A stretch of DNA of 64,000 nucleotides from Harriotta raleighana (Eukaryota), in assembly GCA_050575255.1 (NCBI GenBank), contig JBNZDD010013634.1, forward strand, positions 1,882,494 through 1,946,493, given 5' to 3'. A program made the position numbers and the translations under genes. The notes below the pieces were generated by a model. That model was not told where the DNA came from. It saw nothing but the letters and a program-made list of their open reading frames with translations, and did no database searches. This document shows positions 5,949 through 63,554 of this stretch, one piece after another. Position 1 is the stretch's first letter. Each line of letters starts with the position of its first letter.

Positions 5949-6749
5949 CTGACAGGAGAGAATTGCACAGTAAAAATCACCAGGCGTTTCTGTACAACTC
6001 CCACACAGGGTTAAATACCTAAGTATTAAATACCTCGACTCTCTGCCAAGACCAGAGGCTGATTGATTGCCGCTTCTCGTCTTGGAATTCAGAATAAATG
6101 AGCCGTTAATTGTTCAGTGTCACAAGAGACTCGTGCAGGTGGAGTTGTGTAAAATGAGAGCAGGGAGCGGCAATGGGGCTTTTTTCCCCCCAAAAAAAAA
6201 TTGCAAGTCACAGAAATGTACGTACTGTCCATTTCAGTAAAGACTGTGCCCTGTTATCCATTGTGCTCTTGTTACTCCCAACTAATGGGTTCTCACTGAG
6301 CACTGCAGCAAGCCCATTGTTAATTGGTGTTTTAATCAAGCGTGTTAGCTGTGATCAGAATGTTTTTCACCGCTCACACGGGCTAGTTTGACTTAGTCGA
6401 CTATATGATACAGCATAAATGTACATTTGTAACAATGTTTAAAAGGTGCTGGCTAAAGGATATCCAACAACAACAATTTAGATTTATAGAAGCGCTCATC
6501 ACATTGGGAGGATGTCTCATTGAGTTTCATAGATGCATATAAAAGAGCACAAAGAAAGAACAGAGATTGGAGTCGATTGTTGGGTAGAGGAGCCTGCACT
6601 GGGATAAGCTCAATGAGACAAACTGCACTTTTGGCACATTGCTGAAGAGGAAGCTGAGTTGAGGATGGCATTGTTTCTGACATGAGGATTGTGGAGTTAT
6701 GGAGGGATGGAGAAAGTCCACCTCTTTACTATGGGAAAGCCTCTCTTAC

Positions 6750-6927
6750 CTCTTCCACAGGAAGCTCTTTGAGTTTGGGCAGCGAGCTGGAGAGCAGGCC
6801 CACGAGGAAAGGCGTGGGGCAGCAGACAATGTCGATCATGGAGGAGGGCAGCACTGGAATGAAGGTGTGCTGCCAGGAGAAGGGGTACAGCAATGCCACC
6901 ACAGCATGGGCACAGCTGGACAAAGTG
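6750..6927 (-). CDS. DENND2B: DENND2B exon, cDENN (STLSSCAHAVVALLYPFSWQHTFIPVLP...LKELPVEE)
   Basis: AG/GT boundaries, 178 nt, phase 2-0; carries the DENN motif LLYPFxWQHxFIPVLP. Confidence 0.97.
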
Positions 6928-8361
6928 CTGCGTGGGAAAACACATGACAACGGTACACAATTAATCCCATTGTTGAGTACAGTTGGGTCTTAAAATGACA
7001 TCTAATGCGGCCACTTAACCATTCTTTGTGAAGCATCCTTTATCAATGGATACCACAGCATCTAATAGGCAATATTCCTCCACCTGCCACTTGAATGAAA
7101 CGTGCAGTTCAAATCCAAGACTTGACTAGGCTCAGTGCCCAAGCAAGCATGTATGTCCAGTAACTGAGCGTCACCAGTCCAGTCCATAAGCAGAAAAGGG
7201 AAATTAACCAGAAAAACGTCCTCTAGAATCTCTGCTTCGGTTAATATGGCTTTGATCCTGGAATGCCCTTTTTGTCCATGGAGCACAGAAAGGTGCCAAT
7301 GCATTAAAGCAAAGTAAAATCCAGAAGCCAACATTGCCCAAAAGAAATGGTACAATCTGTGTATACTTTCCAAGATAATTTCTATTGTTAAAAACTCTGA
7401 AGGAAAACCAACCAAAGCATTTTAATGAATGTTCCTGAAATAACAAACACTCGCATGGAGGTCTGGCCAGTTGTCGGGCTGGAAATCTGAAAGTGTTTTA
7501 CTCCAATCATGAAGGATGTGTCTGAGAGCTTCATTTTACTTGTCACCAATGATCAGGCTGCATAGTGAGGATCAAATCCTTCCAGAGCCTTTGTTTTTAA
7601 GAATTAAATTTGCAGCCAAAATAATCATATGCTTGTAATTATAATGAAAGCAGACCCTAACCACTGAAATTAAATTCTTTTGAAATGAGAGAATGAAGGA
7701 ACCTGAAGAGCACTTTCAACTTAAGGTCACAACAGTTAGGATTCAGCACTGTAACTCTGGCCAGAAGTAAACTTGATTTACCCACACACCTAAACCCGCC
7801 TCTCCACTGCACATCCAGCAGGTGGTAGCATTCACTGGTCCCACAGCAGCTTTTCTGTAAACAGCAGTGGTTTGCGCAACTTTTCAATCTTGTAAATTTA
7901 CGATTTCTTGGTAAATTACTGAACCTTCCAGCACTCACTTAACACTTTAACAGGAATTAACCTCTGTTACAAGGGCTTATTTGGAGCTTTGGAGCTACAA
8001 ATGGTGTTTAAAAAGTGATCTGCGGTGAAAATATCATTATTGAGGGAACCTTTGAATGGTATGAATGATCTGAAGTATCAAAGCTATATTACAGCATTGT
8101 AAAAGGGGAATAATGTGTTAGAAAGCAATGTTTCTGTGTTTGTTGATGATGGAAGTTTGTTAAATTACAACTGGATACTATTGATCTGATGTCAGTGCTG
8201 TCATAAGAAGCTGAGCCCTGGGTATAAGCTCTCCTGGGTATAGGCTCTACTGTAGACCATGTTGGAATAAACGCTGGGCCCCTGTCAACCTTTTGCAGCA
8301 CAGCACTGATAGTTGCCATGTGCATTCCTTGCACAGCAATCATCACATGTTCAGTCCCATT

Positions 8362-8655: not shown

Positions 8656-9589
8656 TTGTGGGCCATCTAGAAGGTCCCTAAGTTAAATAAAGATAAAATA
8701 ACTAAATACAGTAATCCTACACTACTCCATCTCTCATGCCCCTCAATTTTATTTGTTGCCAAATAGCTATCTAATTCTCTCTTGAATTTGTTGACACAGT
8801 GTTTCCACCATTTCCCTAGAGTCAATTCCATATATTCACCGCACTCTGTGTTAAAGAATGAAATTTCAAGTGTCTGTTCACCTTCATTTTCTGAATAAGT
8901 CCAAACCTGCCTTGTTCTACATTTGGTAAATATATATTATGATTCAGTTTAACTATATTTGTGTTCTTAAGACATAATAACAAACAAATAAATAAATGAT
9001 CTTTGCTTTTGATATAGTCATTGATTATCACGTCATTGAGACATCACAAAGCGCTTCACAAAATTTATTGTAAAGTGAATCGACTGTGTATTTTGAATTT
9101 TCAGCACCTATACAAGAGTAATTTTGTTGTTGTGCGTGAAACATGGCAGCCAAGAACAGTCATGAATTGAGTGTCTTCAATAGCATATTTGTCAAGCCTT
9201 CCTCCAACTGAATTTTCCCAGTCTCTTCTCGTAACTCAGATGATCAGTTGCTCACCAATCTGGTTATCCTTTGTTATAGCCTCAATTGCAAGAACCTACA
9301 GGTTGTCCATGTTACTTGCCTGCACTGAGCACTGTACAGTCAGACCAAATTCTTGTTGGTGATAATCCAATGCACAGTATTTGATATTATATAATCAATT
9401 GACAACAAAACTGTGGTTTACCACAAGCAAAGCAGGATGCCATTGATCAAACATTGGGCCACCACAAACTACACGTTTGTGTGACAGAATGTCAGAGCTG
9501 TCCAAAACCTCAACCCAGGAAATAAAATCTTAAATGCTATACTTTGTCTATGAATTTAAAATGCTTGTCAGTTGGGCAAAACATACACA

Positions 9590-9911
9590 TAATATAATAA
9601 GAATCCTTGCATTTTTGATGTAGCATTTTTCACGTCTTCTAGACGTCTCAAAGCACTTCACAGAATATACTACAAAGTGAACTAACTGTATATTTGTGGG
9701 CGAAACGCGGCAGCCAATTGCGCATAGCTGTGTCCCATGAACAGTTATGGATTGAAATGACCAATTTATTCTAGGTTTTTTTGGAGGGATTATTATTAGG
9801 CGTGTGAAGTAAGGAAACTTGCTCAAGGTTTCGCCCTGAACTGTCTGGATTCGGAACACAGGTGTCACTCTAGTAAGGCGAGTGCTCTAACCACTGAGCT
9901 ACAGGACTCCA
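9590..9911 (-). mobile_element. tRNA-derived SINE (same family)
   Basis: Reverse complement of the 8362 copy: (AAT)n CCTTGCATTT...AACCACTGAGCTACAGGACTCCAC. Confidence 0.85.
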
Positions 9912-12352
9912 CATCTTGTAGACGTCAAGTATTTTTCAGTGTATCAAAGGGAGAAATGCTACCTGGGTCACAAGATGGAATTTGTACCTAGTTTTTAGTA
10001 AAAACTAAAATATGAAGTTGTAACAGGCGGGATTGCACAGTTGTTGACCTCCCTGACAGGCCTTGTTTCGTGATCTGATAACTTGCCTCACATAACAATC
10101 TACCCCACCACAAAGCTTCTGTAGCGATCGAGAACAAACGCCCTAGATGGATGACTCTCCGATGATCAATAAATTATAGACCTTGACTTGTCTTATTCTC
10201 TGCTGTCGGGTAAATTTACTGATGTTGCTGCTGTGAGATTAAGAAGCCAAATCATATAAAATCACATTCCCAAATTGGGTAAATAATCATTGTAAAATCA
10301 CCCTTTAGGTTTTCAAATTATAGTCCTAGGAAAGCTCTTATTTATTCACTATGGGAATGTATATGAGCATTTAAAAAAAATTAAACCTAGACCTCCATTA
10401 TAAACATTCCAATTTCAAAATTTATCTTGATTTACACAAATACTGACCATCAATTTTCTCTCATTACAAAACTCATGTTATTACCAAGATTATTACACAC
10501 AGACTTTCAGTATAAAAGACTTTTACTGAAAAGCTTGTACTGTATTAGCAAAGCACAAATCCTCACGATAAACCTTCATTGCAAAGTTTGTACTATGGGG
10601 CATCCTAAAAATCTGTTCAAAAGGTAAATAAATTTAGTGTGATTTACTGCTAATCTATAACTCCACCCCCCACCCACCCACACACAGAAACACACATATA
10701 CATTCTCAGCTGTAGCACTCATTATCTTTTCAATAACATGCTGAACAAAGAGGCATTCATTCAGACAAAGATTCTTTTTTTATTATTAATATCCAGTTTC
10801 CTTTCATTTGCCCTTTAAGCTTGGCAAATATATTTTCTTACTCAATTTTAACATTGTTAACAGCCTGCAGAATACAAAGTGAGATTTCCTTCATTGTGCA
10901 GTTTCAAGCTCAGCCCTGGTTCACCAGGCTTGGAGCAATCCAAGGTTGTATTTTGCGGCATTTTCATAAGGGGAAATAGCCCATTGCCAGACAGGTTTGA
11001 ACTACATTTAATTAAACAAACAGTACAGCATTCAATTGAAAATTCTATGGAAACTGACTATTTTTCTTAAGAAATCTGCTATTGGGATACTATGAATTGG
11101 AGAGATGCATAAAAAGGAACAACTTGCATGACAAGTTTTGGGGTAAGAGTGGGAGAGCGAAACTAGCTTGATAGCTCCTTCAAACAGTTGATACAGGAAC
11201 AATAAGAATCTTGTAAATCCCTGCACCTTCACGAACTATAAGATGAGACAATATCTACGGTAAAGGTAGCTGGAATGTGGGGTAGCAGGTGGTGTGGTGA
11301 GTTGGTAAACTGTCCCTTCCTCTCTGTAAAAGTTCCACAGTTTAAGGTTTTCAGTAATTGTGGGGTTGCAGCATGAAGCAGCCTGAATTAACTTCATTCA
11401 GAAAGACCACAGGTTGGCAGAAATTCCAGTCGAGCACCTTCAACAATTCCACAGAGGAAATCCCATCAGCAGCAGCCATCACCAAAGGTGCTAAGTGTAA
11501 CTCCGACCAGAATTTCAGTCCACTTTCAAGTGTTTTGGGAACACAGCAGTTACGGGAATTTTTCTATAGTTGGGCCACTACCCATTGTTCAGCTAAGTGG
11601 CTTAGCTGTTGGTCGTGTGATGTTTGCTATGTGATTATGTGACATTGACACTGAAATAATGGTTATCATCTTGTGGAGCACAAGAATGAATTTGAAACAA
11701 TGAGGAATGTTGTGGAAAGGGGAGATTCTGTTGGGAGCAGTTCATTGCTTACACAATTGGGTACTTCATGCTTAAAAACTGAACAGTACCACAGAGTCTT
11801 GTCTAGAACCTTTTTGATACCATAACCTGAACAGAAACACTTCATAATCATAATCTCTGAAGTAGGGCTCCCAAAGTGATTTCAATACTCTCACGTTGAA
11901 TTGGACACTAAATTCATTTGATTTTTAATAATAATCTATGTGAAGGTCAAAAATACATGGAACTGGGATCGCCGAGGTTAAAAGGAGCAGCAAAGAATTC
12001 TATTAGGATAGATGCATTAGGATGTACGCATGACGCACAAACCTTTTGAAATGAACAGATCCTGGAAAACATGTTGTAATGAGAATGAAACGTACTAATT
12101 CAATATTGTTGCAAGTCTATACTTCTCCCACATCCTCCAAACCCATTTGATTCATATAATACCAGAGATCAAATGCATTTCTACATGTTGATGCAAGTAG
12201 CTTCTGCACTTTGAGAGCCAAGCATAGCATCAGGAAAACAAAGATAGAGCTTCCAAAGACTTCATAAACATTCAAATCAATTTCATGGGGTTTTGGAGAT
12301 TTGCCAGTGGCTTTGTGGATCTGACCTTCTCAACCTGACCCAATGTATTCTC

Positions 12353-12571
12353 AAAACGCAAAATATAGCAGATGCTGGAAATCTGAAACAAAACAGAAAT
12401 CACTGGGAACTCTCCACAGGTCAGGCAGCATCTATGGAGAAAGTAAAAGTGAGTCAATGCTTCAGGTCCAATGTCGGGTTCTGATGAAGGGTCGTGGACC
12501 CGAAACGTTGACTCCCTTTTCCTTTCTCCACAGATGCTGCCTGATCTGCTGAGTGTTCCCAACGATTTCTG
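12353..12571. mobile_element. Palindromic Penelope-like element relic (inverted terminal repeat arms)
   Basis: Arm 12394-12470 is the imperfect reverse complement of 12495-12571 (CAGGCAGCATCTATGGAGAAAG / CTTTCTCCACAGATGCTGCCTG), with a hammerhead motif at the centre. Confidence 0.7.
12476..12514 (+). ncRNA. Minimal type I hammerhead ribozyme motif
   Basis: GGGTT-CTGATGA-A-GGGTC-GTG-GACCC-GAAA-CG-TT-GACTC: core CUGAUGA and GAAA, stem II GGGUC/GACCC, stem I GGGUU/GACUC, palindromic AACGUU in place of stem III. Confidence 0.6.
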
Positions 12572-13524
12572 CCAATTGTGATTGTATTCTCATCTGGAGA
12601 GTGGCAAGGCTTCCATTGTGTAAGCTTTTTAATGTCTGATCTCAGTTAAACTTATTTTGCCCCCATACAGACCGGAACTGAAGAACCTTCTCTCTCTCTT
12701 TCTAAGTGCGATGATGAATTATTGACCCCGCATCCACCCTTCACCGCCCCTCCCTCCCCCCCTCCCATTCCCCAACCACACTACTAGGCTCCATTGTTTT
12801 TGATATATTTTCTCCACCATACAGACAATGTCCTATTATCTAATCTCTCGCCAGCCAAAAAGGGACACAAGTGATGGGTTTCCAAGTCTCATACAATGCA
12901 ACAACATACACACTTATCAGCTATAGAAACCATATTTTATAGAGGTCTTCTTGAAACAAGGCTCGAATTGGGTAGACTGTTTTGATAATCAATGAATTAT
13001 TTTGTTGACTAATAAACTATTCCCCAAAGATGCGTTGAACCCTCATCTAACCACACCATATATTAATCACTTAGTGGGGAAAGTATGAAGGTTGTTTCTG
13101 GAATTGTTTCTGCTTCTGGTCTTTACGGTCATTAATTGCTTGGGGCTTATCCCCGAGCTTACAATTTGAGCTCAATAGCGCACAAGGGGAATGGAACTCA
13201 GCACATATACACCCAGCTCGTATTTTAGGAGGTGAAGGGAAGAGGTCAAAATGGGATCATTTTAATTCAACAATTTCTATTTCCTCCATGTAGTCTTAGA
13301 AAGATTTACGTTCTGTTTCTGCCTAAACCTTATTTTCCTGCTACTTATTTTTAACCCTGTGCCTTCTTAGACAACTAAGCATCAGAATGGTAGCTCAGGC
13401 CATAGCTAACAATGTGTATCACAAACTCAGCTGTTTGCACTCTCTCAGTGCTGTTTGTATAAAGGGGTGCATCTGTTTCTGGTTGCATTGTATACGAATA
13501 TTGCAATCATGGCTTGGGTCAGGA

Positions 13525-13652: not shown

Positions 13653-15512
13653 ATGAACAACAGGCAAGAGTTCTGTTTAAACCCAGCCTTTCCAGATAAG
13701 CAGGCTAAACAAATTATTTTCAGAAACAATGCCAAATACTGTGGCATGAGCTATTCTGTACTTCAGTGGGAGGTAGGATGGTTGAAAACACTTTTGTGAG
13801 TTTGATTTGCAGGACTCAAGATTGCACTAAAACTGTAATTACACAGGAAGGATGTTATTTCCCCAAGACATTCAGTGAGATCCCCAGAAATTCCGATCGC
13901 AGAAATTCCGATCGCCAAAATAAGTGTGTTACCACTATAGTTACCATAAATTTGTCATTATATTCCATGAAGCACTTTGAGATGTCTGGAAGATGTGATA
14001 AGGTGCTTCAATTCACTTTACAGTATATTCTGTGAAGTGCTTTGAGAAGTCTAGAAGATGTGAAAAGCGCTATATCAATGCCAGGATTATTATATATTGT
14101 TATTTTAATTGCAGAATTTAATCATTTTTATTAGAAATAGCAATCGGCTCGCAAATTCACTATCATATCAATGCCTCCTCCTTGTATTTAGCTTTCTGAG
14201 CCCTTTAATTAATAAGAGGAAGACTGAACTGGTTGCAGTTTTTCCACTCTGGATCAGGGTTGAGGGAGCAAGGCGTGTGTGTATGTGTTGGTTGGGGGAG
14301 AGGGAGTGGTAAGAAGTAAGAGCAGTAGAAAGAAAAATGATCAAATATTACTCCAAAATTTGTGTCCACAGGTAAAATGTTTCCATCCTGTGAAATTAGT
14401 GAAATCGGAGTTAAATGAAGTTTGAGGACAAATTTGTTAACAAGTTTAACAGGACTGAAGGGGTCTCGACTTAAGACTGGTGGGTTGTTTAGTTGGTTGG
14501 ATGGTGTGTGGGGGAAGGAGAGTGGGGAGAGAATGCTTTAAAGGGGATCCCATTTTTGTCTCAATGTTACATTCCAAACAAAGCGAAGCAGATATTCGCT
14601 TGAAAATAAAGAGACTTCCCACAAGATTGTCGCTCTTGAATCTGTTCTGGGGCTCACACCTCAGGTTGTGGGGTGGGGTGGGGTGGGGGAGGAAGAGGAG
14701 ACTCTGCTCTGTTCTTGATCAGCTTTTTGGGTTCTTGATTACGGTTGCACATTGAGGTTGAAAGGGAGTGTGGAATCCATGATTGGCCGGGGTTGACTGG
14801 GCAGTGAAGGGAGACGACCAAATTACCCTATAAAATATTGTCTCATTCCATGCTTTTTCATAAAGAGGATTAAAGATTTACTGGCAGCACCTCATTACCT
14901 TGCATGTGCTCTGTAGCGTCTTGCCCTCATAAACCGTCTTTTAATTTCCTCCTTGGTCTAACAGCAGCTATTTGTGGCTGTGTCGGCAAACTATCTTCAC
15001 ATTCTATTCATATCACTTTGAAACTGTTTGTCCTTCTCTTGATAAGAGACGAAGATCAACGACACAGAAAACGATGCTGGGTTTTTCAAAGTTATTGCAG
15101 TAGTTACGCGACAAAAACCTTAACGAGCAGAATCACTGCAGCTCTACAGCTTTTAGCAACTTCCTATCTGTCCAAGCGTTATTTTGCGGATGTAGAATCT
15201 TTTGAGCAAACATTTTTTTCCCACAGGGAGAGAATACTGTACTGACACAGGTCCCACTTTGGCAGAGAAATCTGGGTTAAAGTTGGGGTCTTCTTTCTTA
15301 AGGTTAAAAGGGAACAAGCTGCAAAGGTAATCGGTATGCATAATATAATAATAATCCTTGCATTTGCTACAGCATATCAGAAGGACATCTCAAAGCATTT
15401 CACAGATGCGGTGACTGTGAAACGCGGTAGCGCAATTGCACACAGCCAGTGTCCCACAAAGAGTTCCCCAGTGCCTAATCAACGTAAATAAAATGTGGGC
15501 ATTGCCTGTTAC

Positions 15513-15661
15513 CTCAGTTTGTCTGCGATGAATATCACTCGTCGCTCAAGCAGTAGAGAAGCAAAGATCCTGATGACCTGCCGGACGCTGAGGCAACTGA
15601 AGAGACAATCAAAGTCCACGTGCTCCAACCGAGAATCCATGGGACGTCGCAGTTCAATAAC
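15513..15661 (-). CDS. DENND2B: DENND2B exon (VIELRRPMDSRLEHVDFDCLFSCLSVRQVIRIFASLLLERRVIFIADKL)
   Basis: AG/GT boundaries, 149 nt, phase 0-2; translated by hand because it is absent from the ORF track. Confidence 0.96.
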
Positions 15662-16548
15662 CTGCAGTAACAACAACAACATTTATATAGAGTCCTTCAC
15701 ACAAGCTAGCGTCCTGGCAGCGATAACAGAGTTGGAGTGTTTAATCACATATAGTTCCAACCTATTGCTCTAGGACACGGGTAAGCCTTATACAGTATTC
15801 AACTATCTTTATTATTCTCCACACTTGTTATTGACATCTAGTGAACATGAACCTGTGCGGATGATATCTTGACGTCAAATTGGAACAGTTTTTATCTTTT
15901 CTGCGATGTATTTTTGAAATGTTATTGGTACATCGACATTGGGATACCAAGCTTTGATTCAACATCTAGCCAAAGTTCATGATATGCCACAGAAAAGACA
16001 TTACTTCATTATGACACAGGAGTTGAAGATATATGGAAACTTTTGATATGTTCCACGCTTTTCTCTTAGTTCCCCTGGTCATGCTCAGCACTATTGACAA
16101 ATAATTGTTTAAAAAAAAGTTTATTTTTAAAAAACGTTTAAAACCTATATATTTGTAAGGAATAACTGAAACAGTGAGTTTAAGACAATGATTTGGATTC
16201 ATGGTTTTGCTGACTTAAGAGTCACGGTTTAAGTTTCTCGAACTTTACTTTTTGAGGTTTGTGATCTCAGTGGAACAGCTTGGACGGATTAAGACTTTAA
16301 AAGGCACTGCCAGACGTCCATTATCTTCCACAGCTCCGATTAAATGTGCGTTTCCAGCTCCACAAATGTATACTTTGTTTATTTCATGCATGTAATTTAG
16401 TTTTGCATTGTGCTCATTGCTCATCTTCTGGAGATGGTTTAGTACAGTGCATTCTAATGATTTTAAGCGACATTTTCAAATGAACATTTTCAGGCACAGC
16501 TAAAGAGTTAGTATCTTGTATCTACTTTATAGCAATGAATGTACCTAC

Positions 16549-16666
16549 ATTCTGATGTAAGGTCATGGACCTGAAACGTTAACTCATTTGCCTCTCTCCA
16601 TAGATGCTGCCTAACCCGCTGCGTGTTCCCATTTTGTTTTTATTTCAGATTTCCAGCGTCTGCAGT
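16549..16666 (+). mobile_element. Single-arm Penelope-like relic with degenerate hammerhead core
   Basis: CTGATGTAAGGTCATGGACCTGAAACGTTAAC...CTCCATAGATGCTGCC...TTTCAGATTTCCAGC, the same family as 12353-12571. Confidence 0.65.
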
Positions 16667-20262: not shown

Positions 20263-20489
20263 CTGAAAATAAGAGTAAATAAAGTCAGCACAGAACAAGC
20301 TGTATGCTGTTAGCACCTTCATGATTTGGCATTAAAAGCAATGGTATTATTCTATTATGGTCAACTGGTGTCCTACCAAAGGCATAGGCCTCAAGAAAGT
20401 TGGCAATGATGTCACATATTGCCACCACTACTTTCTGAAAGCATCTTGTATTACACCATTACATCGAATGCTTGTTTCCTGGGAAAACA

Positions 20490-20799
20490 TAATAAAAATA
20501 ATCCTTGCATTTGATATAGCGCTTTTCACATCTTGCAGACGTCTCAAAGCGACTTCACAAAATATACTGTAAAGTGAATTGACTATATATGTGGGCGAAA
20601 CATGGCAGCCAATTGTGCACAGCAGTATCCCACAAACAGTCGCTGAATGAACATGACCAATTTATTATTCTTTTTAGGGATTATTATCAGGCGTTTGGAG
20701 TAAGGAAATTTGCCCAAGGTTTCACCCCCTGCCTGGAATCAAACCCAGGTCTCTCACTTGTAAGGCATGTGCACTAAGCACTGAGCTGCAGGACTCCAC
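20490..20799 (-). mobile_element. tRNA-derived SINE (same family as 8362)
   Basis: ATAATCCTTGCATTTGATATAGCGCTTTTCAC...CACTGAGCTGCAGGACTCCAC. Confidence 0.85.
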
Positions 20800-22774
20800 A
20801 GAGTCAAATACTATCCTGCAAGTGTCAGCTTGATTTCCAGCTCCTCAAATTATATACTTTGTTGGTTTTCAAAAGAATTTTTAAGCATAGCAGCTCTGTC
20901 ACAGCAACTTGGCTGGGCTTGAAACCAATCATGTTAGAGGGTTACTTACATTAAGTCCTCCCTTCAATCACCTCCTCTAATAGGCCATTGAGGACCTTGG
21001 TCAGTTCAATAATGTGCTGTTTGTCTTCTTCTAACAAAGGAATTGCTAGTTGGTGCCCAAATTGACTCTACTTCCTCCCCGGCTCGTCACCAAGCTCCGC
21101 AACTTGATAAGTGCTTCTAGACTCTCTACTTTGTGAATGGTACTACACAAATGGAAATTGCTGGTTAGGAATTGTTAACCTCACTAGAGCTGGGGTCTGA
21201 ACGCTGGGGCTGAAACCAAAGGCAATATTTCCTAAACAAATTGTTAAAGAGTGAAATGCAAAAACAAATGTAAATATCTCTCTATGTTTGCCTTTGAGAC
21301 CCGGCATAGAGAGAAGAGTTGTTTGAGCCTCACAGCAAACTAGCTACTCGCCTTCTGTTACAAGCCAAGATCACAATTCGATATCATCAGTATCTAGAGC
21401 ATCTGATAACAAGCAAAATACGAAAAGACTGTGAAATAAAACGAGTGGGTGCAAGAAAGTCAAAAGTTCAAATCAACTTAAATCTCGAGTCAGATCTTTT
21501 GCATACTTTTCACATATGTATCACAAGGAATCATTGTAAGAATAAGTAACACACAATAAGAATGAGTGGTGTTTACTTCAGCTGGGAGAATCTAGTCCTC
21601 TTGAAACCTACCTAGCTTTGTTGTGTAGCCGAGCTCCCAAATTAAAAGCACCCATTGTACATGATCGATGCCCCAAACCCTTCCATGACACAATAATCTA
21701 AAGAGGAATTTTGTTGGTTAATGCCACAAATTACGAAGCCAAAAATGGAGACTGATCATCAATAATAGCCTTTATAAACACAAATATTCTCTCACTTGTA
21801 TAACTGAAAATGATTTATTATATATACCAAAAAGGATGGTGTTTCCATGACCAATGATTAGGAGATGGAATAAAACATAAAATTTGCAGAAGTTACCCTA
21901 AAACATCCTTCTTCACAATGGGTGGTGGCTGTGTTATAATACTCACACTTTGTGCTCTTACTACTGCTAAAAGGAAACAAAACTTTGCCCTGGGCTACTA
22001 TGAGGTGCAATTTAATGAATATATTAATAGATCATAGCTGGTGGCTGCAGCTCACATCTGCCTGAAGAGATGAATCTTTTTCCCTTATTAGGCAATGAAC
22101 TTGTTCGGAACGCTCTGACTGATTAAATCAGCTATGTGGAGTTTATGCTTAGAATCAAATCCACTGGAATGTCGACACCTTGCCAGCGGCCTTGGATAGC
22201 CACCAGGATGTAGATGTTTTTGATAAACGCCAATAAAAATACTTAGTTCTAAGAACATCGTTACAAACTGAAATGCTTTTTTTTCTTTAAATTGAGAGAA
22301 TTTGTATAGCCACGAAGTAACTGAGCCTCAATGTTTTCTTCGAGAGAAAAAATCTTGGTATATACTTTATGAATTGAACAAACTGAAACATTCAGTGCCA
22401 CAGATTTGATCTTTTCCATTCTGTTCGAGGACCATTCCCCAGCACTGCCATGCACATCTGGCAACAGGGGGGCAACCTGGTCCAGGGAAGCAGGTAGCCC
22501 CAGTCACCAAAAACAGTTCAGATTCCGTTGGGATTAACGTTAGGCAAGCAAGCAGAACTGTGCTAAAGTTCCTACAGTGGGACAGCAAACCTCCACTTGT
22601 ACCAGTCCGTGCTTGATAAAGGATTGATACAATGCGCTATTCTTGTAGTTGTTAAGATTGCTGTTTTGGCTAAAACTGGAAGACCATGAGCCCAACCTTG
22701 TCATATAAGCCGCTTCGCAACAGCCATCTAAATGGCTTATTACAATGAGGTAACAACAACAACTTAATAACAAG

Positions 22775-22930
22775 GATAATAGGAGACCATTCGGCCCATT
22801 AAGTCTGTTCCGGCTATTTGAAAAGAGCTATTCAAAGTCAATCCCACTCCCTGGCTCTCTCCCCATAACCTCGCAAACCCATTCTCCCCAAATAACCATC
22901 CAACGCTCTTTTAAAAGCTGTTATCAAATC
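22775..22930 (-). mobile_element. CR1 LINE 3' end fragment (copy at +2600)
   Basis: GGAGACCATTCGGCCCAT...TTTGAAAAGAGC...ATCCCACT is the reverse complement of the CR1 3' UTR seen at 300-370. Confidence 0.7.
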
Positions 22931-22954
22931 GGCGCCCTACATTTCCCCACATTC

Positions 22955-23250
22955 TTTATATAGTGCCCTACACTCCGGGCAGCGTTTCAGAGCGCTTAAC
23001 AATGTCAGAGCTCAAGGCTGAGCCAGGGTCGGTGGAAGGTGACCATAGGTGCTGTTGAAGAGAATGTTCTTCAGGCATGATGTGAAGATGGGGAAGGAGG
23101 GGGTGAGATGCAAGGATTGATAGAGGGAGTTCCAAAGTTTCTGGGCATAGTGGCTGAAAGCACAGCCGCTGATGGTGAAGTGGAGGATTAGAGGGACAAA
23201 GAGGAGGATGGAGCCAGTAGAGCGGAGGCAGTGTGAGGAGGAGTAAGTGA
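22955..23250 (-). mobile_element. L2 LINE 3' fragment (copy at +2600)
   Basis: Minus-strand translation AFSHYAQKLWNSL...SFPIFTSCLKNILF resembles the L2 ORF2 end; an L2-type tail follows. Confidence 0.7.
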
Positions 23251-23876
23251 TGCGGATGCCTGATTCACTTAATAAAAGCTGTGTTTCCACAGGGATTAAC
23301 TGTCAGTGAAACAGGAATGTAGGAGATGCCAATAAAGAAAGGTAATCTGAAAGAAGCCTTCTTGGGATTTTACAGAGTTTACTGTAACTATTGTATTAAA
23401 AAGATATGTTCTCCTGCCAATAAGATTGGCATCTCAAAACATAAACTATTCCTGCAACTCAATTAAATTCAAGTTGCTGCAGTCTTGTCAAAGTTAGCTC
23501 CTGTATTTATATTTTATTGTCCTGTGTCAATAAATTCAAGAGGGAATTAGATAGGCTTTTGACACAGAAACCAATGGACTGATAGACGGAGTAGTGGAAT
23601 TTTTTCTCTCTTAAAAAAAATTATGAACTGGCCAGTTTGTGATCTTTTCTGATCCTGATGATTCCTATTCTTAGCCACAATGCAACGAGCAACTGGGAGA
23701 TAATCAAGAGGAGCAACATTATACTAATGACCATTTCTGATTCAGGAGTAGCGTTAACTGACTCGGATAACATTGGACAAGACTTAATATTCAAAGTGGT
23801 CCAAAGTAGTCGACAAATTCAGGTGTCTGAATTCCAAATTCAGGGATGTCCTCCCGATGTGAAAGGCGCTATATAA

Positions 23877-24210
23877 ATAATAATAATAATAATCCTTGCA
23901 TTTGATATAGCGCTTTTCACATCTTATCAACGTCCCAAAGTGCTTCACAGAGCATACTGTAAAGTGAATTGACTGTATATTTGTGGGCGAAACGTGGCAA
24001 CCAATTGCGCACAGCAGTGTCCCACAAACAGTCATGGATTGAAATGACCAATTTTATTATTGTAGTTTTTTTTGAGGGATTATTATTAGGCATGCGGAGT
24101 AAGGAAACTTGCCCAAGGTTTCGCCCAGATCTGCCTGGATTTGAACACAGGCCTCATACTTGTAAGGCATGTAAGGCGAGTGCTCTAACCACTGAGCCAC
24201 AGGAGCGCCA
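23877..24210 (-). mobile_element. tRNA-derived SINE (duplicated at 26477-26810)
   Basis: (AAT)n tail, family body and tRNA head AACCACTGAGCCACAGGAGCGCCAC. Confidence 0.85.
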
Positions 24211-27200
24211 CAAAGGTATGATCGTTGCATAAAGGTAAGTTTGGTGTTATTGTTGTCTTAAAAATTGGGCAGTAAGTCACCAATTCTGTGCACAAGCACA
24301 ATACATGCCTCTGTCTATATACTCCACTGTTTCTCTTTCATATTGTAAGAAATGGTGATAATCTANAGCCTTTATAAACACAAATATTCTCTCACTTGTA
24401 TAACTGAAAATGATTTATTATATATACCAAAAAGGATGGTGTTTCCATGACCAATGATTAGGAGATGGAATAAAACATAAAATTTGCAGAAGTTACCCTA
24501 AAACATCCTTCTTCACAATGGGTGGTGGCTGTGTTATAATACTCACACTTTGTGCTCTTACTACTGCTAAAAGGAAACAAAACTTTGCCCTGGGCTACTA
24601 TGAGGTGCAATTTAATGAATATATTAATAGATCATAGCTGGTGGCTGCAGCTCACATCTGCCTGAAGAGATGAATCTTTTTCCCTTATTAGGCAATGAAC
24701 TTGTTCGGAACGCTCTGACTGATTAAATCAGCTATGTGGAGTTTATGCTTAGAATCAAATCCACTGGAATGTCGACACCTTGCCAGCGGCCTTGGATAGC
24801 CACCAGGATGTAGATGTTTTTGATAAATGCCAATAAAAATACTTAGTTCTAAGAACATCGTTACAAACTGAAATGCTTTTTTTTCTTTAAATTGAGAGAA
24901 TTTGTATAGCCACGAAGTAACTGAGCCTCAATGTTTTCTTCGAGAGAAAAAATCTTGGTATATACTTTATGAATTGAACAAACTGAAACATTCAGTGCCA
25001 CAGATTTGATCTTTTCCATTCTGTTCGAGGACCATTCCCCAGCACTGCCATGCACATCTGGCAACAGGGGGGCAACCTGGTCCAGGGAAGCAGGTAGCCC
25101 CAGTCACCAAAAACAGTTCAGATTCCGTTGGGATTAACGTTAGGCAAGCAAGCAGAACTGTGCTAAAGTTCCTACAGTGGGACAGCAAACCTCCACTTGT
25201 ACCAGTCCGTGCTTGATAAAGGATTGATACAATGCGCTATTCTTGTAGTTGTTAAGATTGCTGTTTTGGCTAAAACTGGAAGACCATGAGCCCAACCTTG
25301 TCATATAAGCCGCTTCGCAACAGCCATCTAAATGGCTTATTACAATGAGGTAACAACAACAACTTAATAACAAGGATAATAGGAGACCATTCGGCCCATT
25401 AAGTCTGTTCCGGCTATTTGAAAAGAGCTATTCAAAGTCAATCCCACTCCCTGGCTCTCTCCCCATAACCTCGCAAACCCATTCTCCCCAAATAACCATC
25501 CAACGCTCTTTTAAAAGCTGTTATCAAATCGGCGCCCTACATTTCCCCACATTCTTTATATAGTGCCCTACACTCCGGGCAGCGTTTCAGAGCGCTTAAC
25601 AATGTCAGAGCTCAAGGCTGAGCCAGGGTCGGTGGAAGGTGACCATAGGTGCTGTTGAAGAGAATGTTCTTCAGGCATGATGTGAAGATGGGGAAGGAGG
25701 GGGTGAGATGCAAGGATTGATAGAGGGAGTTCCAAAGTTTCTGGGCATAGTGGCTGAAAGCACAGCCACTGATGGTGAAGTGGAGGATTAGAGGGACAAA
25801 GAGGAGGATGGAGCCAGTAGAGCGGAGGCAGTGTGAGGAGGAGTAAGTGATGCGGATGCCTGATTCACTTAATAAAAGCTGTGTTTCCACAGGGATTAAC
25901 TGGCAGTGAAACAGGAATGTAGGAGATGCCAATAAAGAAAGGTAATCTGAAAGAAGCCTTCTTGGGATTTTACAGAGTTTACTGTAACTATTGTATTAAA
26001 AAGATATGTTCTCCTGCCAATAAGATTGGCATCTCAAAACATAAACTATTCCTGCAACTCAATTAAATTCAAGTTGCTGCAGTCTTGTCAAAGTTAGCTC
26101 CTGTATTTATATTTTATTGTCCTGTGTCAATAAATTCAAGAGGGAATTAGATAGGCTTTTGACACAGAAACCAATGGACTGATAGACGGAGTAGTGGAAT
26201 TTTTTCTCTCTTAAAAAAAATTATGAACTGGCCAGTTTGTGATCTTTTCTGATCCTGATGATTCCTATTCTTAGCCACAATGCAACGAGCAACTGGGAGA
26301 TAATCAAGAGGAGCAACATTATACTAATGACCATTTCTGATTCAGGAGTAGCGTTAACTGACTCGGGTAACATTGGACAAGACTTAATATTCAAAGTGGC
26401 CCAAAGTAGTCGACAAATTCAGGTGTCTGAATTCCAAATTCAGGGATGTCCTCCCGATGTGAAAGGCGCTATATAAATAATAATAATAATAATCCTTGCA
26501 TTTGATATAGCACTTTTCACATCTTATCAACGTCCCAAAGCGCTTCACAGAGCATACTGTAAAGTGAATTGACTGTATATTTGTGGGCGAAACGTGGCAA
26601 CCAATTGCGCACAGCAGTGTCCCACAAACAGTCATGGATTGAAATGACCAATTTTATTATTGTAGTTTTTTTGGAGGGATTATTATTAGGCATGCGGAGT
26701 AAGGAAACTTGCCCAAGGTTTCGCCCAGATCTGCCTGGATTTGAACACAGGCCTCATACTTGTAAGGCATGTAAGGCGAGTGCTCTAACCACTGAGCCAC
26801 AGGAGCGCCACAAAGGTATGATCGTTGCATAAAGGTAAGTTTGGTGTTATTGTTGTCTTAAAAATTGGGCAGTAAGTCACCAATTCTGTGCACAAGCACA
26901 ATACATGCCTCTGTCTATATACTCCACTGTTTCTCTTTCATATTGTAAGAAATGGTGATAATCTAATTTGAACAAGAATTCAATTGAATGATATATAATG
27001 TAGGGCTTTTTTTTTAAGAACAAAACACCTTGCAAAGTGGCTGTAGAGCTCAGTGACTTGACTGTGATCCTTCTCAATGGTCCTTTCTGGAAGCACACTA
27101 AGAAAAGGCAAGTGTTTTTTCCTCAGACCTCTGTCAGTGCTCCTCTGGGACTAGCCCTGAGAAGGTGGAAAGAGTGAGCCTGGCTCCAACTACATAGGAG

Positions 27201-29677: not shown

Positions 29678-29787
29678 CTGATAAAATCTGACACTGGAGC
29701 CCAGTCCTTAGCATCTGGGAAGCAGAATTGTGGGATAGCTTTCAGGCGTTCTTCAGCCTCACGCACTTGTTTTGTTGGCCTCTCTAG
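29678..29787 (-). CDS. DENND2B: DENND2B exon, uDENN (LERPTKQVREAEERLKAIPQFCFPDAKDWAPVSDFI)
   Basis: AG/GT boundaries, 110 nt, phase 0-2; IPQFCFP motif. Confidence 0.96.
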
Positions 29788-31503
29788 CTGTGGAGGGGAA
29801 ACAAAACCATGTCACTTGCATATAGCGAACAGTAGTAAATGTGATTCTGTAAACTGGTAACAATATTATTCAGTCTTTAACAGTGCCCCAAGGTAACGCT
29901 ATTCAATTCTTGCGGTTTGATAGTGGAATTGTCAACCCTTAATAGTACTTGATGACAAGCTCATTCCTCAACCATACCAGCATATCACAATCAACCCTTA
30001 ACAGTACTTCATGTAACACTTGTATCTACCATGTAACCTCTGTACAAAGTTTGATAAAAGATTCAGTGTAACTAAATAAAACCTACAGTGTAGTGCAGTA
30101 ATATACAAATATTCCTTAAGCGAGTGTTGATGGGCTACTTGAACATGGCAGTGGGAACTTCCTGACCCTGTACATTGCAGTATTCATCCAAAATTGCCTT
30201 TGCCCTTTGCTCTGCCACCTGGGCACTTGTGACAGGGGTCCTTCCCTGGACTGTGACCAGGAGCAGGTAGTGAGTAAGGGTGTTTGAGACCAAGGCACTG
30301 GAGTCATTCATAAAACCTCTTGATGCTGTGATGGGAAAATGGAAGATGGAATGTAGTCTTGTACAGTGTTTCATCTGTTTTCTAGTTACACTGTCTTGTC
30401 AGATACTAATCNNNNNNNNNNNNNNNNNNNNNNNNNNNNNNNNNNNNNNNNNNNNNNNNNNNNNNNNNNNNNNNNNNNNNNNNNNNNNNNNNNNNNNNNN
30501 NNNNNNNNNNNNNNNNNNNNNNNNNNNNNNNNNNNNNNNNNNNNNNNNNNNNNNNNNNNNNNNNNNNNNNNNNNNNNNNNNNNNNNNNNNNNNNNNNNNN
30601 NNNNNNNNNNNNNNNNNNNNNNNNNNNNNNNNNNNNNNNNNNNNNNNNNNNNNNNNNNNNNNNNNNNNNNNNNNNNNNNNNNNNNNNNNNNNNNNNNNNN
30701 NNNNNNNNNNNNNNNNNNNNNNNNNNNNNNNNNNNNNNNNNNNNNNNNNNNNNNNNNNNNNNNNNNNNNNNNNTAAAATCTGACACTGGAGCCCAGTCCT
30801 TAGCATCTGGGAAGCAGAATTGTGGGATAGCTTTCAGGCGTTCTTCAGCCTCACGCACTTGTTTTGTTGGCCTCTCTAGCTGTGGAGGGGAAACAAAACC
30901 ATGTCACTTGCATATAGTGAACAGTAGTAAATGTGATTCTGTAAACTGGTAACAATATTATTCAGTCTTTAACAGTGCCCCAAGGTAACGCTATTCAATT
31001 CTTGCGGTTTGATAGTGGAATTGTCAACCCTTAATAGTACTTGATGACAAGCTCATTCCTCAACCATACCAGCATATCACAATCAACCCTTAACAGTACT
31101 TCATGTAACACTTGTATCTACCATGTAACCTCTGTACAAAGTTTGATAAAAGATTCAGTGTAACTAAATAAAACCTACAGTGTAGTGCAGTAATATACAA
31201 ATATTCCTTAAGCGAGTGTTAATGGGCTACTTGAACATGGCAGTGGGAACTTCTTGACCCTGTACATTGCAGTATTCATCCAAAATTGCCTTTGCCCTTT
31301 GCTCTGCCACCTGGACACTTGTGACAGGGGTCCTTCCCTGGACTGTGACCAGGAGCAGGTAGTGAGTAAGGGTGTTTGAGACCAAGGCACTGGAGTCATT
31401 CATAAAACCTCTTGATGCTGTGATGGGAAAATGGAAGATGGAATGTAGTCTTGTACAGTGTTTCATCTGTTTTCTAGTTACACTGTCTTGTCAGATACTA
31501 ATC
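29682..31503. repeat. 730-bp duplication across an N gap (29682-30411 / 30774-31503; gap 30412-30773), including a second copy of the 29678-29787 exon at 30774-30879
   Basis: Offset 1092; about 4 substitutions; the donor end of the second exon copy runs into the gap. Confidence 0.93.
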
Positions 31504-35957: not shown

Positions 35958-37309
35958 CTGTGTTAAAATAAAGCATTGTATGTAAAGCACATAACATTCA
36001 AACACTGATTCAAGCTCTATTGTTTTACAATGCAACTTCAAACACTGAATGCTTCTGTTTCAAGCAACTCAAACATTTAGCGATGTCAACAACATGTCAA
36101 ATTTATACAACATCTTTCACACAAAGAAACACCTAAAGGCTTTATAGAATGAGAAACAAAGGATAAATCGAAATGAAGTGAATGTTGTAAAAACAACAAA
36201 ATGCAGCAGCTATTTTGCACTAGCAATGTCCCAATTAATCTGATGGAGTGAATTGGAATAAAGAAGAATATAGGCCAAGTGGTGTAACGATACCACGAAG
36301 CAGGTTTGGAACCACACTAAGCGCTCATTCTTATACAATCTGGGTGAGGTCAGAAGGCGTTGGATTTAGCTTTGGACAATAAATTCACCCAGTCACAGAA
36401 AATCAAGTGCAAACTACCTATTGAAAAGTGGATCTGAACTTGCAGTGTGTCTTGAAGATAATCATTAGCGTTGTGGAGATTTATATTAGTCTGACAATTG
36501 GTCAGTTCTGATTGTGTCCTGGTGCTGGACCTATCCTATAATTCCACAAATCTCTTCTTTATTTCATCTTCAACCTAGCCCAGTTAGGTTGTCTTACATC
36601 TGATCCTTGGTTCCCCTTAGTTTACATAGTTGGTGAAACCAATACTGTGAATCTGTAAAAAATATTGTATGATTGACTCATCAGAGGATTCGGTGAGAAA
36701 TTATCTTCAGCCTTTCGTTGTTTCCCCCACCCCTACAATCTACCCTTGAAATGTAACTGTAGTTCCAGATGGGCAGGACACATTCTGAACCCCAGGTCCT
36801 ATTTCTTGAAGATGATATGCCGCAGCTTATTTGGTATGAGCATACACATGTGCTTTGCCCATAGTGGAGAGCAGTGATCAGTGAGTTATAGATTCTAGAG
36901 CCAAGCCTCACTCCATCAGCAGCAAGAGCATTGGCAAACAATAAAAAATTATGTTGTGATTTATGATGTTGTTTTTCTTCTTTGCCTTGATTCATTCTTT
37001 TTTGTATGTTATTCACTTTCCATCCATGGCTTATTTCCAAAGGAAAGCAAACTGTTGTCGTCGCCCCCAAGAAAAAAAACAATCCAAGAATTAACCCCTA
37101 ACAGTATCCTCTCTTCCCTATTAGGGATCCAAGTGATCAATGGGAATAATATGTATATATGTTTTTTCCTCTGTCTGTTTGTTTTTTCTATATATGCAAA
37201 AGGCAAACAAATTCAAAATTGAAGGATGTACTGAAGAACAAGCAAAGGGATTAACATCTCATCCAAAGGGACAGCAAAGTAATACCACCCAGTTTCTGGA
37301 TTAAATTGT

Positions 37310-38525
37310 GAGTCTTCCAGCTTCGCTCTTTCCTCTCCCCTCACTCCCTCCACAAACCCCTCCAATTGGGCTTCCATGCTGCCCACAGCACGAAAACTGC
37401 TCTGGTCAAGGTCACAAAGGGATATCCTGACCATCTGTGACCAGGACTCCCTCTGCCTCCTTATCCTCCTCAACCTGTCTGCTGCCTTTGACACCATAGA
37501 CCATTCAATCCTCTGCCTCCTTATCCTCCCCAACCTCTCTGCTGCCTTTGACACCATAGACCATTCAATCCTCCTCCACCAGCTCTCCTTCCATCTCAAT
37601 CTTCATGGTTCTGTCCTTGATTGGTTCAGGTCATATCTTTCAAATCGTCTCCACTTCGTCTCTGCCAAGCTCAACATCAGCAAGTACAAGTCTCTCCTGA
37701 TTGGCTTGCATCAGCATCTCCTCACTTCGGGCACTGGCAGCATCAGCATCCACGGCTGCACACTCCATCTCATGAAGCCAGTCAGGAACCTGGGTGTCTT
37801 ATTTGACTCTGAACTGTCCTTCCTCCCCCAAATCCGTGCCATGACCAGCATTGCCTTTCACCACCTCCAGAACATTGCCAGACACCACCACTGCTTCACC
37901 GCTCAAGCTGCTGAAATTCACCCTCACCCATGCATTCATCACATCAAGGCTTGTCTACGGAAACTCCCTCCTCATCATTCTTCCCAACTCTTCCATTCAT
38001 AAGCTGCAGATCATCCAAAACTCTGCAGCCAGCTCATGTCCTCTCCTGCACTAGGCTCCACGACCCATCACTCTCACTCTTGCCTAGTTCCATTGGCTCC
38101 CTATCCGCCAGAGGATCGAATTCAAGATCCTCATCCTCGCTTTCAAGGGCATCCTTGGTCTTATCCACTCCCGTTTCTCTGACCTGCTGACTCCCTAACA
38201 ACCTGCCTGGTCCCTCCGTTCAGCGGGCTCTGGTCCGCTCCATGTTTCCCGCCTAATCTGCCCTACCAACAGTGGCTGGGCTTTCAGCTTCTCTGCCCCC
38301 ACACTCTGGAACTCAATCCCACAGTCCCTCCGCCTCGCTTCCTCTCTTGCCTCCTTCAAGGCAGGTCTCAAGACCCTCCTTTTTGACCGTGCCTTCAGCT
38401 GCCCTCCTACCTCTCTGTCTCGCCTCACCCCTAACCCACCTCTTTCCCATGTTGGAGTCCCGACCGCTGATTGTTCATTGCCTTGGGAAAGCCTCTCAAC
38501 GTGAAAGATGCTCTATAAATATAAT
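37310..38525 (+). mobile_element. L2 (CR1/L2 clade) LINE: 5'-truncated, frameshifted reverse transcriptase remnant with 3' tail
   Basis: GF..HSTKTALVKVT, LLNLSAAFDTIDHSILL, VLDWFRSYLSNR, VRNLGVLFDSELSF, HAFITSRL.Y.NSLL, LQIIQNSAA, LWNS; tail GTGAAAGATGCTCTATAAAT. Confidence 0.9.
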
Positions 38526-49006: not shown

Positions 49007-51193
49007 AGACTGCATTAGGTAATCTCATCTCAATCTGGGTAGAGTTCCTCCACATGGTCTATTAATGGGTGGTCTGCACACTCTCCAGGTGGTTCTGCTT
49101 GGCACAGAATGAGCAACAACCCAGCCTCGTGCCACCTCCAAAACCTGGGCTCACGTTCAGTCCCATTGAAGGTGAAATTCTTGTCATCTTGACAGCTGTA
49201 CAGAGCCTAATTGAAAAATATTTGGGCAGTTTCAACCTAGCTCCCAGTGGACGGAAGTGTGCAACATAAATATCCCCTCACATTTAGCCCATTTGGCATT
49301 AGTTTGGCAATATTGTTATAGAGCCTGTAAGAACACACAGTGTAGGAAATGGAAATATCACACTAGTGACTGAGCAAAGCTCTTCTGGGCTTTGGCTGAA
49401 GGCCCTACTTTCTATTACCAGAATTTGCAATGAACCAAATCCTGCACCAATTCCTAATGATAAAAAAAACATTGATGGGATTTAAATCTGTTGTGTGGAG
49501 CAGGCATGCCCTGGATGCCACTACTGCATGCTGCCCAGATCCACATCTGTTTAGCGCTGTGAGTCACTACCCTGCGTGAAAGGCGCTATATAATACAAGT
49601 TGTTGAAATGGAATTTAGCCAAGCACCAACAGCAGCAACCATGTAAACGAAGATTAGTCAAAATCTAAGGCATAAAAAAGGAAGATTTACTGTAGAAGAG
49701 GAGCATTACAGAGAAACACCATCCGAGAGAGAGCAGCAAAGCTACCGGTGAAGAATATACTTGGCCAAAGGCCAAGCCTCCTGATGGTTTTCAATGCAGC
49801 CGTTTAAAATGATCTGGAGAAGCGAGAGAGCAACCAACACACTTGGGAATTGCTGGGAAAATTGCGAAAACCAGACATGTCACACCTCATTCGTACATTC
49901 CATAACTGGTCAGGCTAGCTCTGGAATAACATACATTTTGAAACAGAAATTGGCCAGTTGTGACTCATATGCTTGAGAATATAAAGTGCCCAAAGTCCTC
50001 AACTTTTCCCTACTTTTACCCCTTTACACCCTTACTTCCCAAGTAACTAGCCATCATCATTTTGAACATCCCAATTGATTCAGCTTTTGCTTATTTTACN
50101 AGACTGCATTAGGTAATCTCATCTCAATCTGGGTAGAGTTCCTCCACATGGTCTATTAATGGGTGGTCTGCACACTCTCCAGGTGGTTCTGCTTGGCACA
50201 GAATGAGCAACAACCCAGCCTCGTGCCACCTCCAAAACCTGGGCTCACATTCAGTCCCATTGAAGGTGAAATTCTTGTCATCTTGACAGCTGTACAGAGC
50301 CTAATTGAAAAATATTTGGGCAGTTTCAACCTAGCTCCCAGTGGACGGAAGTGTGCAACATAAATATCCCCTCACATTTAGCCCATTTGGCATTAGTTTG
50401 GCAATATTGTTATAGAGCCTGTAAGAACACACAGTGTAGGAAATGGAAATATCACACTAGTGACTGAGCAAAGCTCTTCTGGGCTTTGGCTGAAGGCCCT
50501 ACTTTCTATTACCAGAATTTGCAATGAACCAAATCCTGCACCAATTCCTAATGATAAAAAAAACATTGATGGGATTTAAATCTGTTGTGTGGAGCAGGCA
50601 TGCCCTGGATGCCACTACTGCATGCTGCCCAGATCCACATCTGTTTAGCGCTGTGAGTCACTACCCTGCGTGAAAGGCGCTATATAATACAAGTTGTTGA
50701 AATGGAATTTAGCCAAGCACCAACAGCAGCAACCATGTAAACGAAGATTAGTCAAAATCTAAGGCATAAAAAAGGAAGATTTACTGTAGAAGAGGAGCAT
50801 TACAGAGAAACACCATCCGAGAGAGAGCAGCAAAGCTACCGGTGAAGAATATACTTGGCCAAAGGCCAAGCCTCCTGATGGTTTTCAATGCAGCCGTTTA
50901 AAATGATCTGGAGAAGCGAGAGAGCAACCAACACACTTGGGAATTGCTGGGAAAATTGCGAAAACCAGACATGTCACACCTCATTCGTACATTCCATAAC
51001 TGGTCAGGCTAGCTCTGGAATAACATACATTTTGAAACAGAAATTGGCCAGTTGTGACTCATATGCTTGAGAATATAAAGTGCCCAAAGTCCTCAACTTT
51101 TCCCTACTTTTACCCCTTTACACCCTTACTTCCCAAGTAACTAGCCATCATCATTTTGAACATCCCAATTGATTCAGCTTTTGCTTATTTTAC
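49007..51193. repeat. 1093-bp near-identical tandem duplication (49007-50099 / 50101-51193) joined by a single N; probable assembly artefact
   Basis: Offset 1094 with N at 50100; one substitution seen by eye. Confidence 0.95.
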
Positions 51194-60678: not shown

Positions 60679-60846
60679 ATCTGAAACAAAAACAGAAATC
60701 ACTGGGAGCACTCAGCTGGTCAGGCAGCATCTATGGAGAAAGGATAAGATTTCCTGCCTCCATAGATGCTGCCTGACCTACTGAGTGTTCTCAACGATTT
60801 CTGTTTTTGTTTCAGATTTCCAGCATCTGCAGTGTTTTGCGTTTTT
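60679..60846. mobile_element. Palindromic Penelope-like relic with the hammerhead centre deleted
   Basis: Arms 60679-60738 and 60758-60817 are near-perfect reverse complements; same family as 12353. Confidence 0.7.
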
Positions 60847-61321
60847 GTTCATTTTTATTTGATTTGCTGATTTCTCCTGTAACTTCTAAAGAATTGTGCT
60901 CCCCAGTATTTTTTGAGGTGTATGAATAAGTTGTGATCTGGAGAGGTAACATTTGCCTTTACCCTTCCAATTGTCCACATGGCGAGGGCTTGGTCTGAAT
61001 GTAACGTGGGAAAGTGAGAATTTGTATAACTGTTCAAAGGGGACAAATGAATACTTCAATTCTCATGGGGCCAGCAGGGCGAGGAAAGTTCAAGAGATCA
61101 TTATCTGTTGGTCATCAGTTGGCAGATGCAGAACTCAGATATACTCCAACAGGAAGCTCATGGGCTACTGTCTGAAAAATTAAATAAAGCAGTAATAATC
61201 CTTGCATTTAATATAGCCCCTTTCACATTGGGAGGAGTTCTCATAGCACTTCACAGGTTATACAGTAAAAGACAACACGTTTTATAGGGCAAACACGGTA
61301 GCCACATTTAACCAATCTTAC

Positions 61322-61508: not shown

Positions 61509-61588
61509 CCACAATGTCATATGTTTTTGGATTGCCACACAATTAGGTTATTCTGCAAGAGGGAGCCTGATATCAGCATTCAGACTGT

Positions 61589-63536: not shown

Positions 63537-63554
63537 AAGGCCTTTGCCCCTTAC

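Follow-up and report, generated by a model that had tools for sequence, protein, structure and literature searches.

A dead head-to-head pLTR insertion in the genome of Harriotta raleighana, likely primed from both target strands, with a hammerhead motif that is likely inert

The window analysed here is a stretch of 64,000 nt on the forward strand of contig JBNZDD010013634.1 (1,882,494-1,946,493) of the Harriotta raleighana assembly GCA_050575255.1. At 12353-12582 it carries a 230-bp insertion that is bounded on both sides by a 9-bp target-site duplication (TSD) and consists of two head-to-head pLTR copies of a Neptune-type Penelope-like element (PLE), now dead (Table 1). It is almost certain that the insertion is real, that it derives from a PLE and that it belongs to a kind already known. 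The original prediction had ended the element at 12571; the TSD places the end at 12582, the last stretch of the forward arm (12572-12582) being diverged. The reverse arm (12353-12470) carries a tail of about 34 nt at about 12353-12385 and is broken inside helix II of the hammerhead motif, so that it lacks CUGANGA.

Table 1. Features of the insertion and of the surrounding window (window coordinates)
Feature	Position	Strand	Details
Left TSD	12344..12352		9 bp; exact repeat at 12583-12591
Reverse pLTR arm	12353..12470	-	family positions 136 to 18; matches the family majority at 108/118 bases
Junction filler between arms	12471..12477		7 nt; defined by the arm gap of 7 and by the parent sequence
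Forward pLTR arm	12478..12582	+	tail-less; begins at family position 1; 90/94 aligned bases match
Right TSD	12583..12591		9 bp; pairs with 12344-12352
Minimal type I hammerhead motif	12476..12514	+	39 nt
Helix I, 5' strand	12476-12480	+
CUGAUGA core	12481-12487	+
Extra A	12488	+
Helix II	12489-12501	+
GAAA	12502-12505	+
CG-UU	12506-12509	+	ACGU = 12505-12508
Helix I, 3' strand	12510-12514	+
Frame with next host DENN exon	6732..6989	-	Pfam PF02141, profile 119-178, E 8e-23
Frame with the host DENN exon that precedes the intron	15512..15682	-	Pfam PF02141, profile 68-118, E 1.3e-11
Second copy, solo	16550..16666	+	family positions 2-124; damaged core; intronic
Third copy, head-to-head pair	60679..60847		family positions 39-108 and 41-138; without hammerhead

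Minus-strand DENN exons lie on either side of the site and match consecutive profile positions; the insertion is therefore intronic, as had been proposed, with its hammerhead motif in antisense orientation relative to the host pre-mRNA. DENN and dDENN domains were found in the host gene, which we take to be DENND2-like; a protein atlas search returned no name for it. The proposal that a ribozyme-bearing family is scattered throughout this gene was not upheld, as only one of the three copies in the window passes a minimal-hammerhead descriptor, and it lies antisense to the gene.

Every element of the motif at 12476-12514 was found where it had first been placed, with cleavage predicted after U17 (12509). 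The proposed class, the minimal type I hammerhead, also stands, as far as the available part of PMC4209133 describes it: CUGANGA, GAAA, NUH, helices I and II and the palindromic 15.2-16.2 are present, together with the extra base before 10.1, the G10.1-C11.1 pair, a short helix I and the lack of a helix III. The hammerheads of that paper, in the same part of which opposite-strand pairs are already noted and no shark family is named, differ from the present one, where helix II has 5 bp and a single motif is buried in a hairpin. The descriptor gave one match in the window, both strands being searched, and none in 200 shuffled windows. An Rfam search gave no hammerhead match at E<=1. Sub-threshold Rfam matches to mir-197 and MIR6450, which are miRNA-like and located on hairpins, were set aside.

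Two details of the motif need revision. Helix I, described as GGGUU/GACUC, is present as a sequence, but its element-derived part is only GUU (12478-80); the other two bases (12476-77) are contributed by the junction filler at 12471-12477. Since these bases are filler and the parent PLE has CA in their place, helix I owes its fifth pair to chance, and its fourth pair is a wobble. The palindrome AACGUU, offered as a replacement for stem III, is better read in a dimer model drawn from PMC4209133, in which the 4-nt ACGU would form helix III and the outer A and U would belong to the core. In the genome at large the core frame of the hammerhead has 1092 matches, the first 100 of which mostly show CpG decay. 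The family is essentially a single sequence with decay at CpG sites, and stem covariation within it is weak; at pair 12-24, 6 of the 181 copies carry changes on both sides (uncorrected p 0.04). The descriptor is passed by 5 of the 66 arms that span the motif.

At this site the motif is probably inert, a judgement that draws on modelled folding and rests on its being antisense to the host DENN gene, buried in a hairpin and without a dimer partner. It had been described as central between inverted arms of about 75 bp. The arms exist (12394-12470 and 12495-12571, 77 nt, 84% complementary), but the motif is not at their centre, as 20 of its 39 nucleotides (12495-12514) lie in the right arm. Because the right arm holds the 3' half of the motif, the insertion is predicted to fold into a single long hairpin (folding z = -13.8). 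The predicted pairing probability of helix II falls from 0.22 for the motif by itself to 0.001 when the whole insertion is folded, and imposing the active hammerhead fold on the latter would cost 20.7 kcal/mol. CUGANGA is absent from the minus strand of the insertion, and no same-sense partner for a dimer was found nearby; in PMC4209133, minimal hammerhead monomers were uncleaved and dimers were cleaved weakly.

A genome-wide test for copies starting at the cleavage site showed no peak of 5' ends. After two duplicates were dropped, truncations at family positions 32, 33, 34, 35 and 36 numbered about 17, 13, 9, 4 and 10, the figure for position 32 being scaled to about 17 from 10 truncated copies among 30 of 52 matches. 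An apparent enrichment at position 33 over position 35 (16 versus 6, 22 each) was gone after three further control positions were added. The lack of a peak accords with in vitro work in which uncleaved RNA is the main template (PMC11167929), and it cautions that an intact hammerhead in such copies need not mean an active one.

The parent element was traced with a PLE endonuclease, obtained from a Pfam search, as query. A second group of matches, more distant from the query, comprises 32 loci (L104-L135); in 28 of them the pLTR lies just downstream of the GIY-YIG endonuclease and in its orientation, usually at a distance of about 410 bp. Some of these loci overlap or duplicate one another, and 20 were hand-picked from the match list. 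The pLTR occurs in RT-bearing copies as well, which supports the proposed link to Penelope. No adjacent pLTR was seen at the 18 loci of the query endonuclease's own PLE family. RT fragments are present at L125 and L126, and longer copies with RT motifs exist; parent translations include a CX4CxxC linker and a CxxC. The GIY-YIG profile match in the parent (E 0.0036) was below the cut-off, and the RT fragment had no match in Pfam, NCBIfam or PDB. The putative RT is thus called through its homologues with RVT_1 and GIY-YIG: 426 were retrieved, many with both domains, the best being from bamboo shark (63-66%). No intact ORF was found in parent copies.

The arrangement of the longer copies is that of known PLEs. 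One locus (L216) has the endonuclease end, the pLTR and an ORF in tandem, and two others (L222, L223) have inverted pLTRs with a one-sided tail that enclose RT and endonuclease, an architecture that is canonical according to PMC3846280 and PMC8557442. Four more (L141, L144, L151, L154) have pLTRs, tandem or inverted, that overlap the next unit at its 5' end. The hallmarks of EN+ PLEs, namely pLTRs in tandem or inverted, a one-sided tail of 30-40 bp and a variable TSD, were all found in this family. A CX2-5CxxC linker ahead of a GIY-YIG domain that bears a CCHH motif characterises Neptune, and the linker is common to Neptune and Nematis (PMC8557442); by its linker, and with Neptune as the linker-bearing clade reported in vertebrates, the parent appears to be Neptune-type. 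A literature search on shark PLEs, judged from its listed entries, showed no description of this family. A pyrimidine tract followed by AG was also observed past the tail and before the likely start codon, at about 2921-2965 of L216 and in L141, L144 and L151; it is possibly the acceptor of a 5' intron of the sort that other PLEs have.

In the genome (1.1 Gb) a first look turned up 4996 candidates; the 40 copies that were scored can be aligned along most of the 219 bases. A 28-base stretch of the family has 2008 exact genomic matches. Evenly spaced samples, about 244 kb in total, contained seven insertions, which points to a copy number of some 30,000, subject to a wide error. At 30 query-like loci the reverse arm has a fixed outer end and a variable inner end, and the forward arm begins one base before helix I. 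Ends were then surveyed in 148 arms from 95 loci chosen by internal pattern or position (8 duplicate loci dropped), the end calls by local alignment carrying an uncertainty of a few bases. The 3' ends (n=147) are bimodal, with 58 at 94-110, 62 at >=128 and 27 elsewhere. As for the 5' ends (n=148), 40 lie at -2 to +2, 24 reach parent sequence and the remaining 84 are truncated more deeply, and where the ends lie near position 1 the upstream sequence is unrelated between copies.

An initiator-like sequence lies at position 1 of parent copies, and 18 of 21 of them also carry a TATA-like box at a fixed spacing, some 30 nt upstream of it. Family position 1 would then be the RNA start, and the short copies would be run-off cDNAs of an RNA starting at the hammerhead. 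The TATA-less internal promoter of D. virilis Penelope (PMC2377424) counts against an RNA start at helix I. A splice acceptor at helix I was considered as the cause of the 5' cluster and rejected; CAG is kept in many copies, and there is no common upstream exon. Two side observations concern the same ends. A minor cluster of 5' ends (13/148, at pattern-selected loci) lies at family positions 9-10, before helix II, and is possibly an RT pause. At eight loci (L034, L050, L059, L156, L160, L208, L210, L226) the alignments end about 80 bases upstream of the hammerhead, with a common alternative upstream sequence; these represent a second subfamily of the parent.

The tail is distributed between paired arms by a rule. 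Among 39 head-to-head pairs (tail threshold 128) it was on one arm in 34, on neither in 5 and on both in 0 (p 1.4e-6), and a separate set of 55 pairs from 117 loci (4 loci dropped; threshold 124) gave 47, 8 and 0 (p 3e-8). Pooled, these sets, which were not selected by the query, show a tail on one arm in 81/94 pairs and on both arms in 0; in the query-selected set of 30 loci, one palindrome (L008) has both tails. The arm that lacks the tail extends further 5' in 15 pairs versus 5 (1 tie; p 0.04) and, in the second set, in 22 versus 11 (3 ties); the arms are nested in 5/21 and 11/36 of the tail/no-tail pairs. Derived variants common to both arms occur at 0.0171 per site, against 0.0088 in shuffled arms (33 pairs, p 0.001), and could reflect subfamily age or gene conversion. 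TSDs of at least 9 bases flank 10/39 pairs and 9/69 solo arms, against 1-2% in shuffled-flank controls (1.2% for pairs), and their length varies between copies from about 8 to 15 bp.

Taken as a whole, the insertion is likely a dead head-to-head pLTR pair that was primed from two strands during insertion and whose hammerhead is inert. The one-sided tail, the tail-less arm that reaches further 5', the common variants and the TSDs are most simply explained by priming from both strands, and we give double priming from both target strands a little better than an even chance. The lopsided ends hint that PLEs may start RNA copying on both sides of the cut in the DNA. The more specific version, twin priming, in which a dimeric enzyme primes both strands at two start sites of a single uncleaved RNA, is put forward more tentatively, with a chance somewhat below even.

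The process might run as follows. The pLTR with its hammerhead is seen to lie after the GIY-YIG endonuclease and, in tandem copies, before the ORF. Transcription would start from an initiator situated right at helix I and roughly 30 nt past the TATA-like box. As another PLE is known to do in vitro, the RT-endonuclease would cut both target strands and begin copying from two internal sites separated by about 34 nt. On one strand, priming at the near site would often run off at the RNA start and leave a tail-less arm with the whole hammerhead; on the other, priming at the far site would often stop earlier and leave a tailed, truncated arm. This order of priming is read from end positions alone. 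Microhomology or filler would link the two cDNA ends, and the TSD would result from the repair of the gaps. In twin priming the RNA would begin at the first helix of the hammerhead, and the trailing polymerase would displace the leading cDNA. By computation, the motif would end up in antisense to the host pre-mRNA, hidden in the hairpin if the + strand is read, and without a same-sense dimer partner.

Twin priming of L1, as Ostertag and Kazazian reportedly described it in 2001, uses two target-strand primers and leads to an inversion within one TSD, with pieces that do not overlap. The use of two target-strand primers would be shared; here the arms mostly overlap, unlike those of L1, so that strand displacement or two RNAs would be needed. 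Another parallel is PAc, the Poseidon element of Anolis, which according to PMC11167929 has two RT start sites and undergoes two-strand extension in vitro. The gap of about 34 nt between the 3'-end clusters matches the tail, and that paper ties it to the two RT start sites. Both elements have two 3' ends about 34 nt apart past the hammerhead and templates that look uncleaved; the present parent differs in its CX4CxxC linker of Neptune/Nematis, and in the accessible text on PAc the two-strand extension is not linked to inverted arms. A literature search on twin priming in PLEs matched three papers, and one restricted to 2022 onward matched nothing.

The structure itself, an inverted pLTR with a one-sided tail, is of a known kind. 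Insertions of the Pen2a_Av type (EN+ PLEs; PMC3846280 and PMC8557442) likewise have a head-to-head inverted 5'-truncated copy, a tail at one end and a 9-bp TSD; they differ from the present case, in which each arm is no more than a piece of pLTR, the whole 230 bp holds no ORF, and such stubs are very common. The locus is thus ordinary, and it is the family that provides data on how PLEs build inverted repeats with one-sided tails. If twin priming is true, the short copies, in their tens of thousands, would be its traces across the genome, inverted pLTRs, one-sided tails and solo pLTRs would come from one mechanism, and hammerhead cleavage would not shape most templates. The tail rule and the sharp 5' end lead to predictions that are testable in the existing in vitro PLE system.

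Arkhipova and colleagues have proposed a different reading, in which a single cDNA, or an antisense template, snaps back and is copied, with the endonuclease later trimming one tail; PMC3846280 so interprets the head-to-head palindromes and PMC8557442 the one-sided tail. Many junctions with short overlaps and the variants common to paired arms agree with such self-priming, and nested arms fit fold-back copying and double priming equally well. Simple fold-back of a cDNA primed at the target, however, requires nested arms, and the majority of pairs are staggered (15 vs 5; 22 vs 11), as is the copy at 12353-12582. Arms consisting only of the tail, joined to a tail-less arm, also exist (L031, L224, L252, L264, L352), and the two RT start sites of PMC11167929 explain the tail without trimming. 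We therefore regard fold-back as unlikely.

Still less probable, and by a wide step, is a self-contained non-autonomous hairpin or retrozyme-like unit that is transcribed, cleaves itself and spreads as a unit, close to what the original prediction had inferred. The abundance of the family (about 5000 first-look candidates, with the 40 scored copies spanning most of the 219 bases) would suit it, and a few diagnostic sites set the short copies apart from the endonuclease-linked ones, so that a separate source locus is possible. No junction is common between copies, however; as the inner junction varies, a fixed hairpin unit is ruled out, and 70/148 arms have no head-to-head partner. The small share of motif-spanning arms that pass the descriptor and the lack of a 5'-end excess at the cleavage site also stand against it. 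Non-LTR retrozymes (bioRxiv 10.64898/2026.07.22.740005) are likewise short, non-coding and PLE-derived, with a type I hammerhead, but are defined by arrays of head-to-tail units that each carry a ribozyme; at 12353-12582 there is a head-to-head pair with one motif and no such array. A MITE of a DNA transposon with an incidental hammerhead likeness, which the short length, high copy number, inverted arms and flanking TSD might recall, has a negligible chance, given the unequal termini, a TSD varying from about 8 to 15 bp, the variable centre and the many solo arms, and is refuted by direct continuity with RT and GIY-YIG sequence.

Several minor observations arose along the way. The Pfam GIY-YIG search of the genome also returned a bacterial ORF, a further fragment and a different PLE family. 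The bacterial ORF (650 aa, with a GIY-YIG match) lies on contig C12264 (L061, L066) and is presumably UvrC-like; the contig probably entered the assembly from contaminating bacteria or from a symbiont. The fragment we take to be SLX1-like. The second PLE family, on C13463 (L068, L086-L088), has GIY-YIG and a Cys linker and is unrelated to the pLTR of 12353-12582; no match to a relaxed hammerhead pattern was found near its endonuclease. Within the window, fragments at 37283-38002 and 63539-63877 resemble what we take to be an L2/CR1-type LINE reverse transcriptase, and a Pfam search of 37283-38002 gave no match. Another dispersed repeat of about 340 bp (75-83% identity), SINE-like or a LINE tail, occurs at 9560-9913, 20467-20803, 23871-24216, 61588-61862 and elsewhere. 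Finally, head-to-tail duplicates of 2599, 1093 and 730 bp, with 99.5-99.9% identity, lie at 21767-26965, 49007-51193 and 29682-31503, two with a single-base spacer and one with an N run; the last repeats part of a DENN-gene exon, and all three are probably assembly artefacts.
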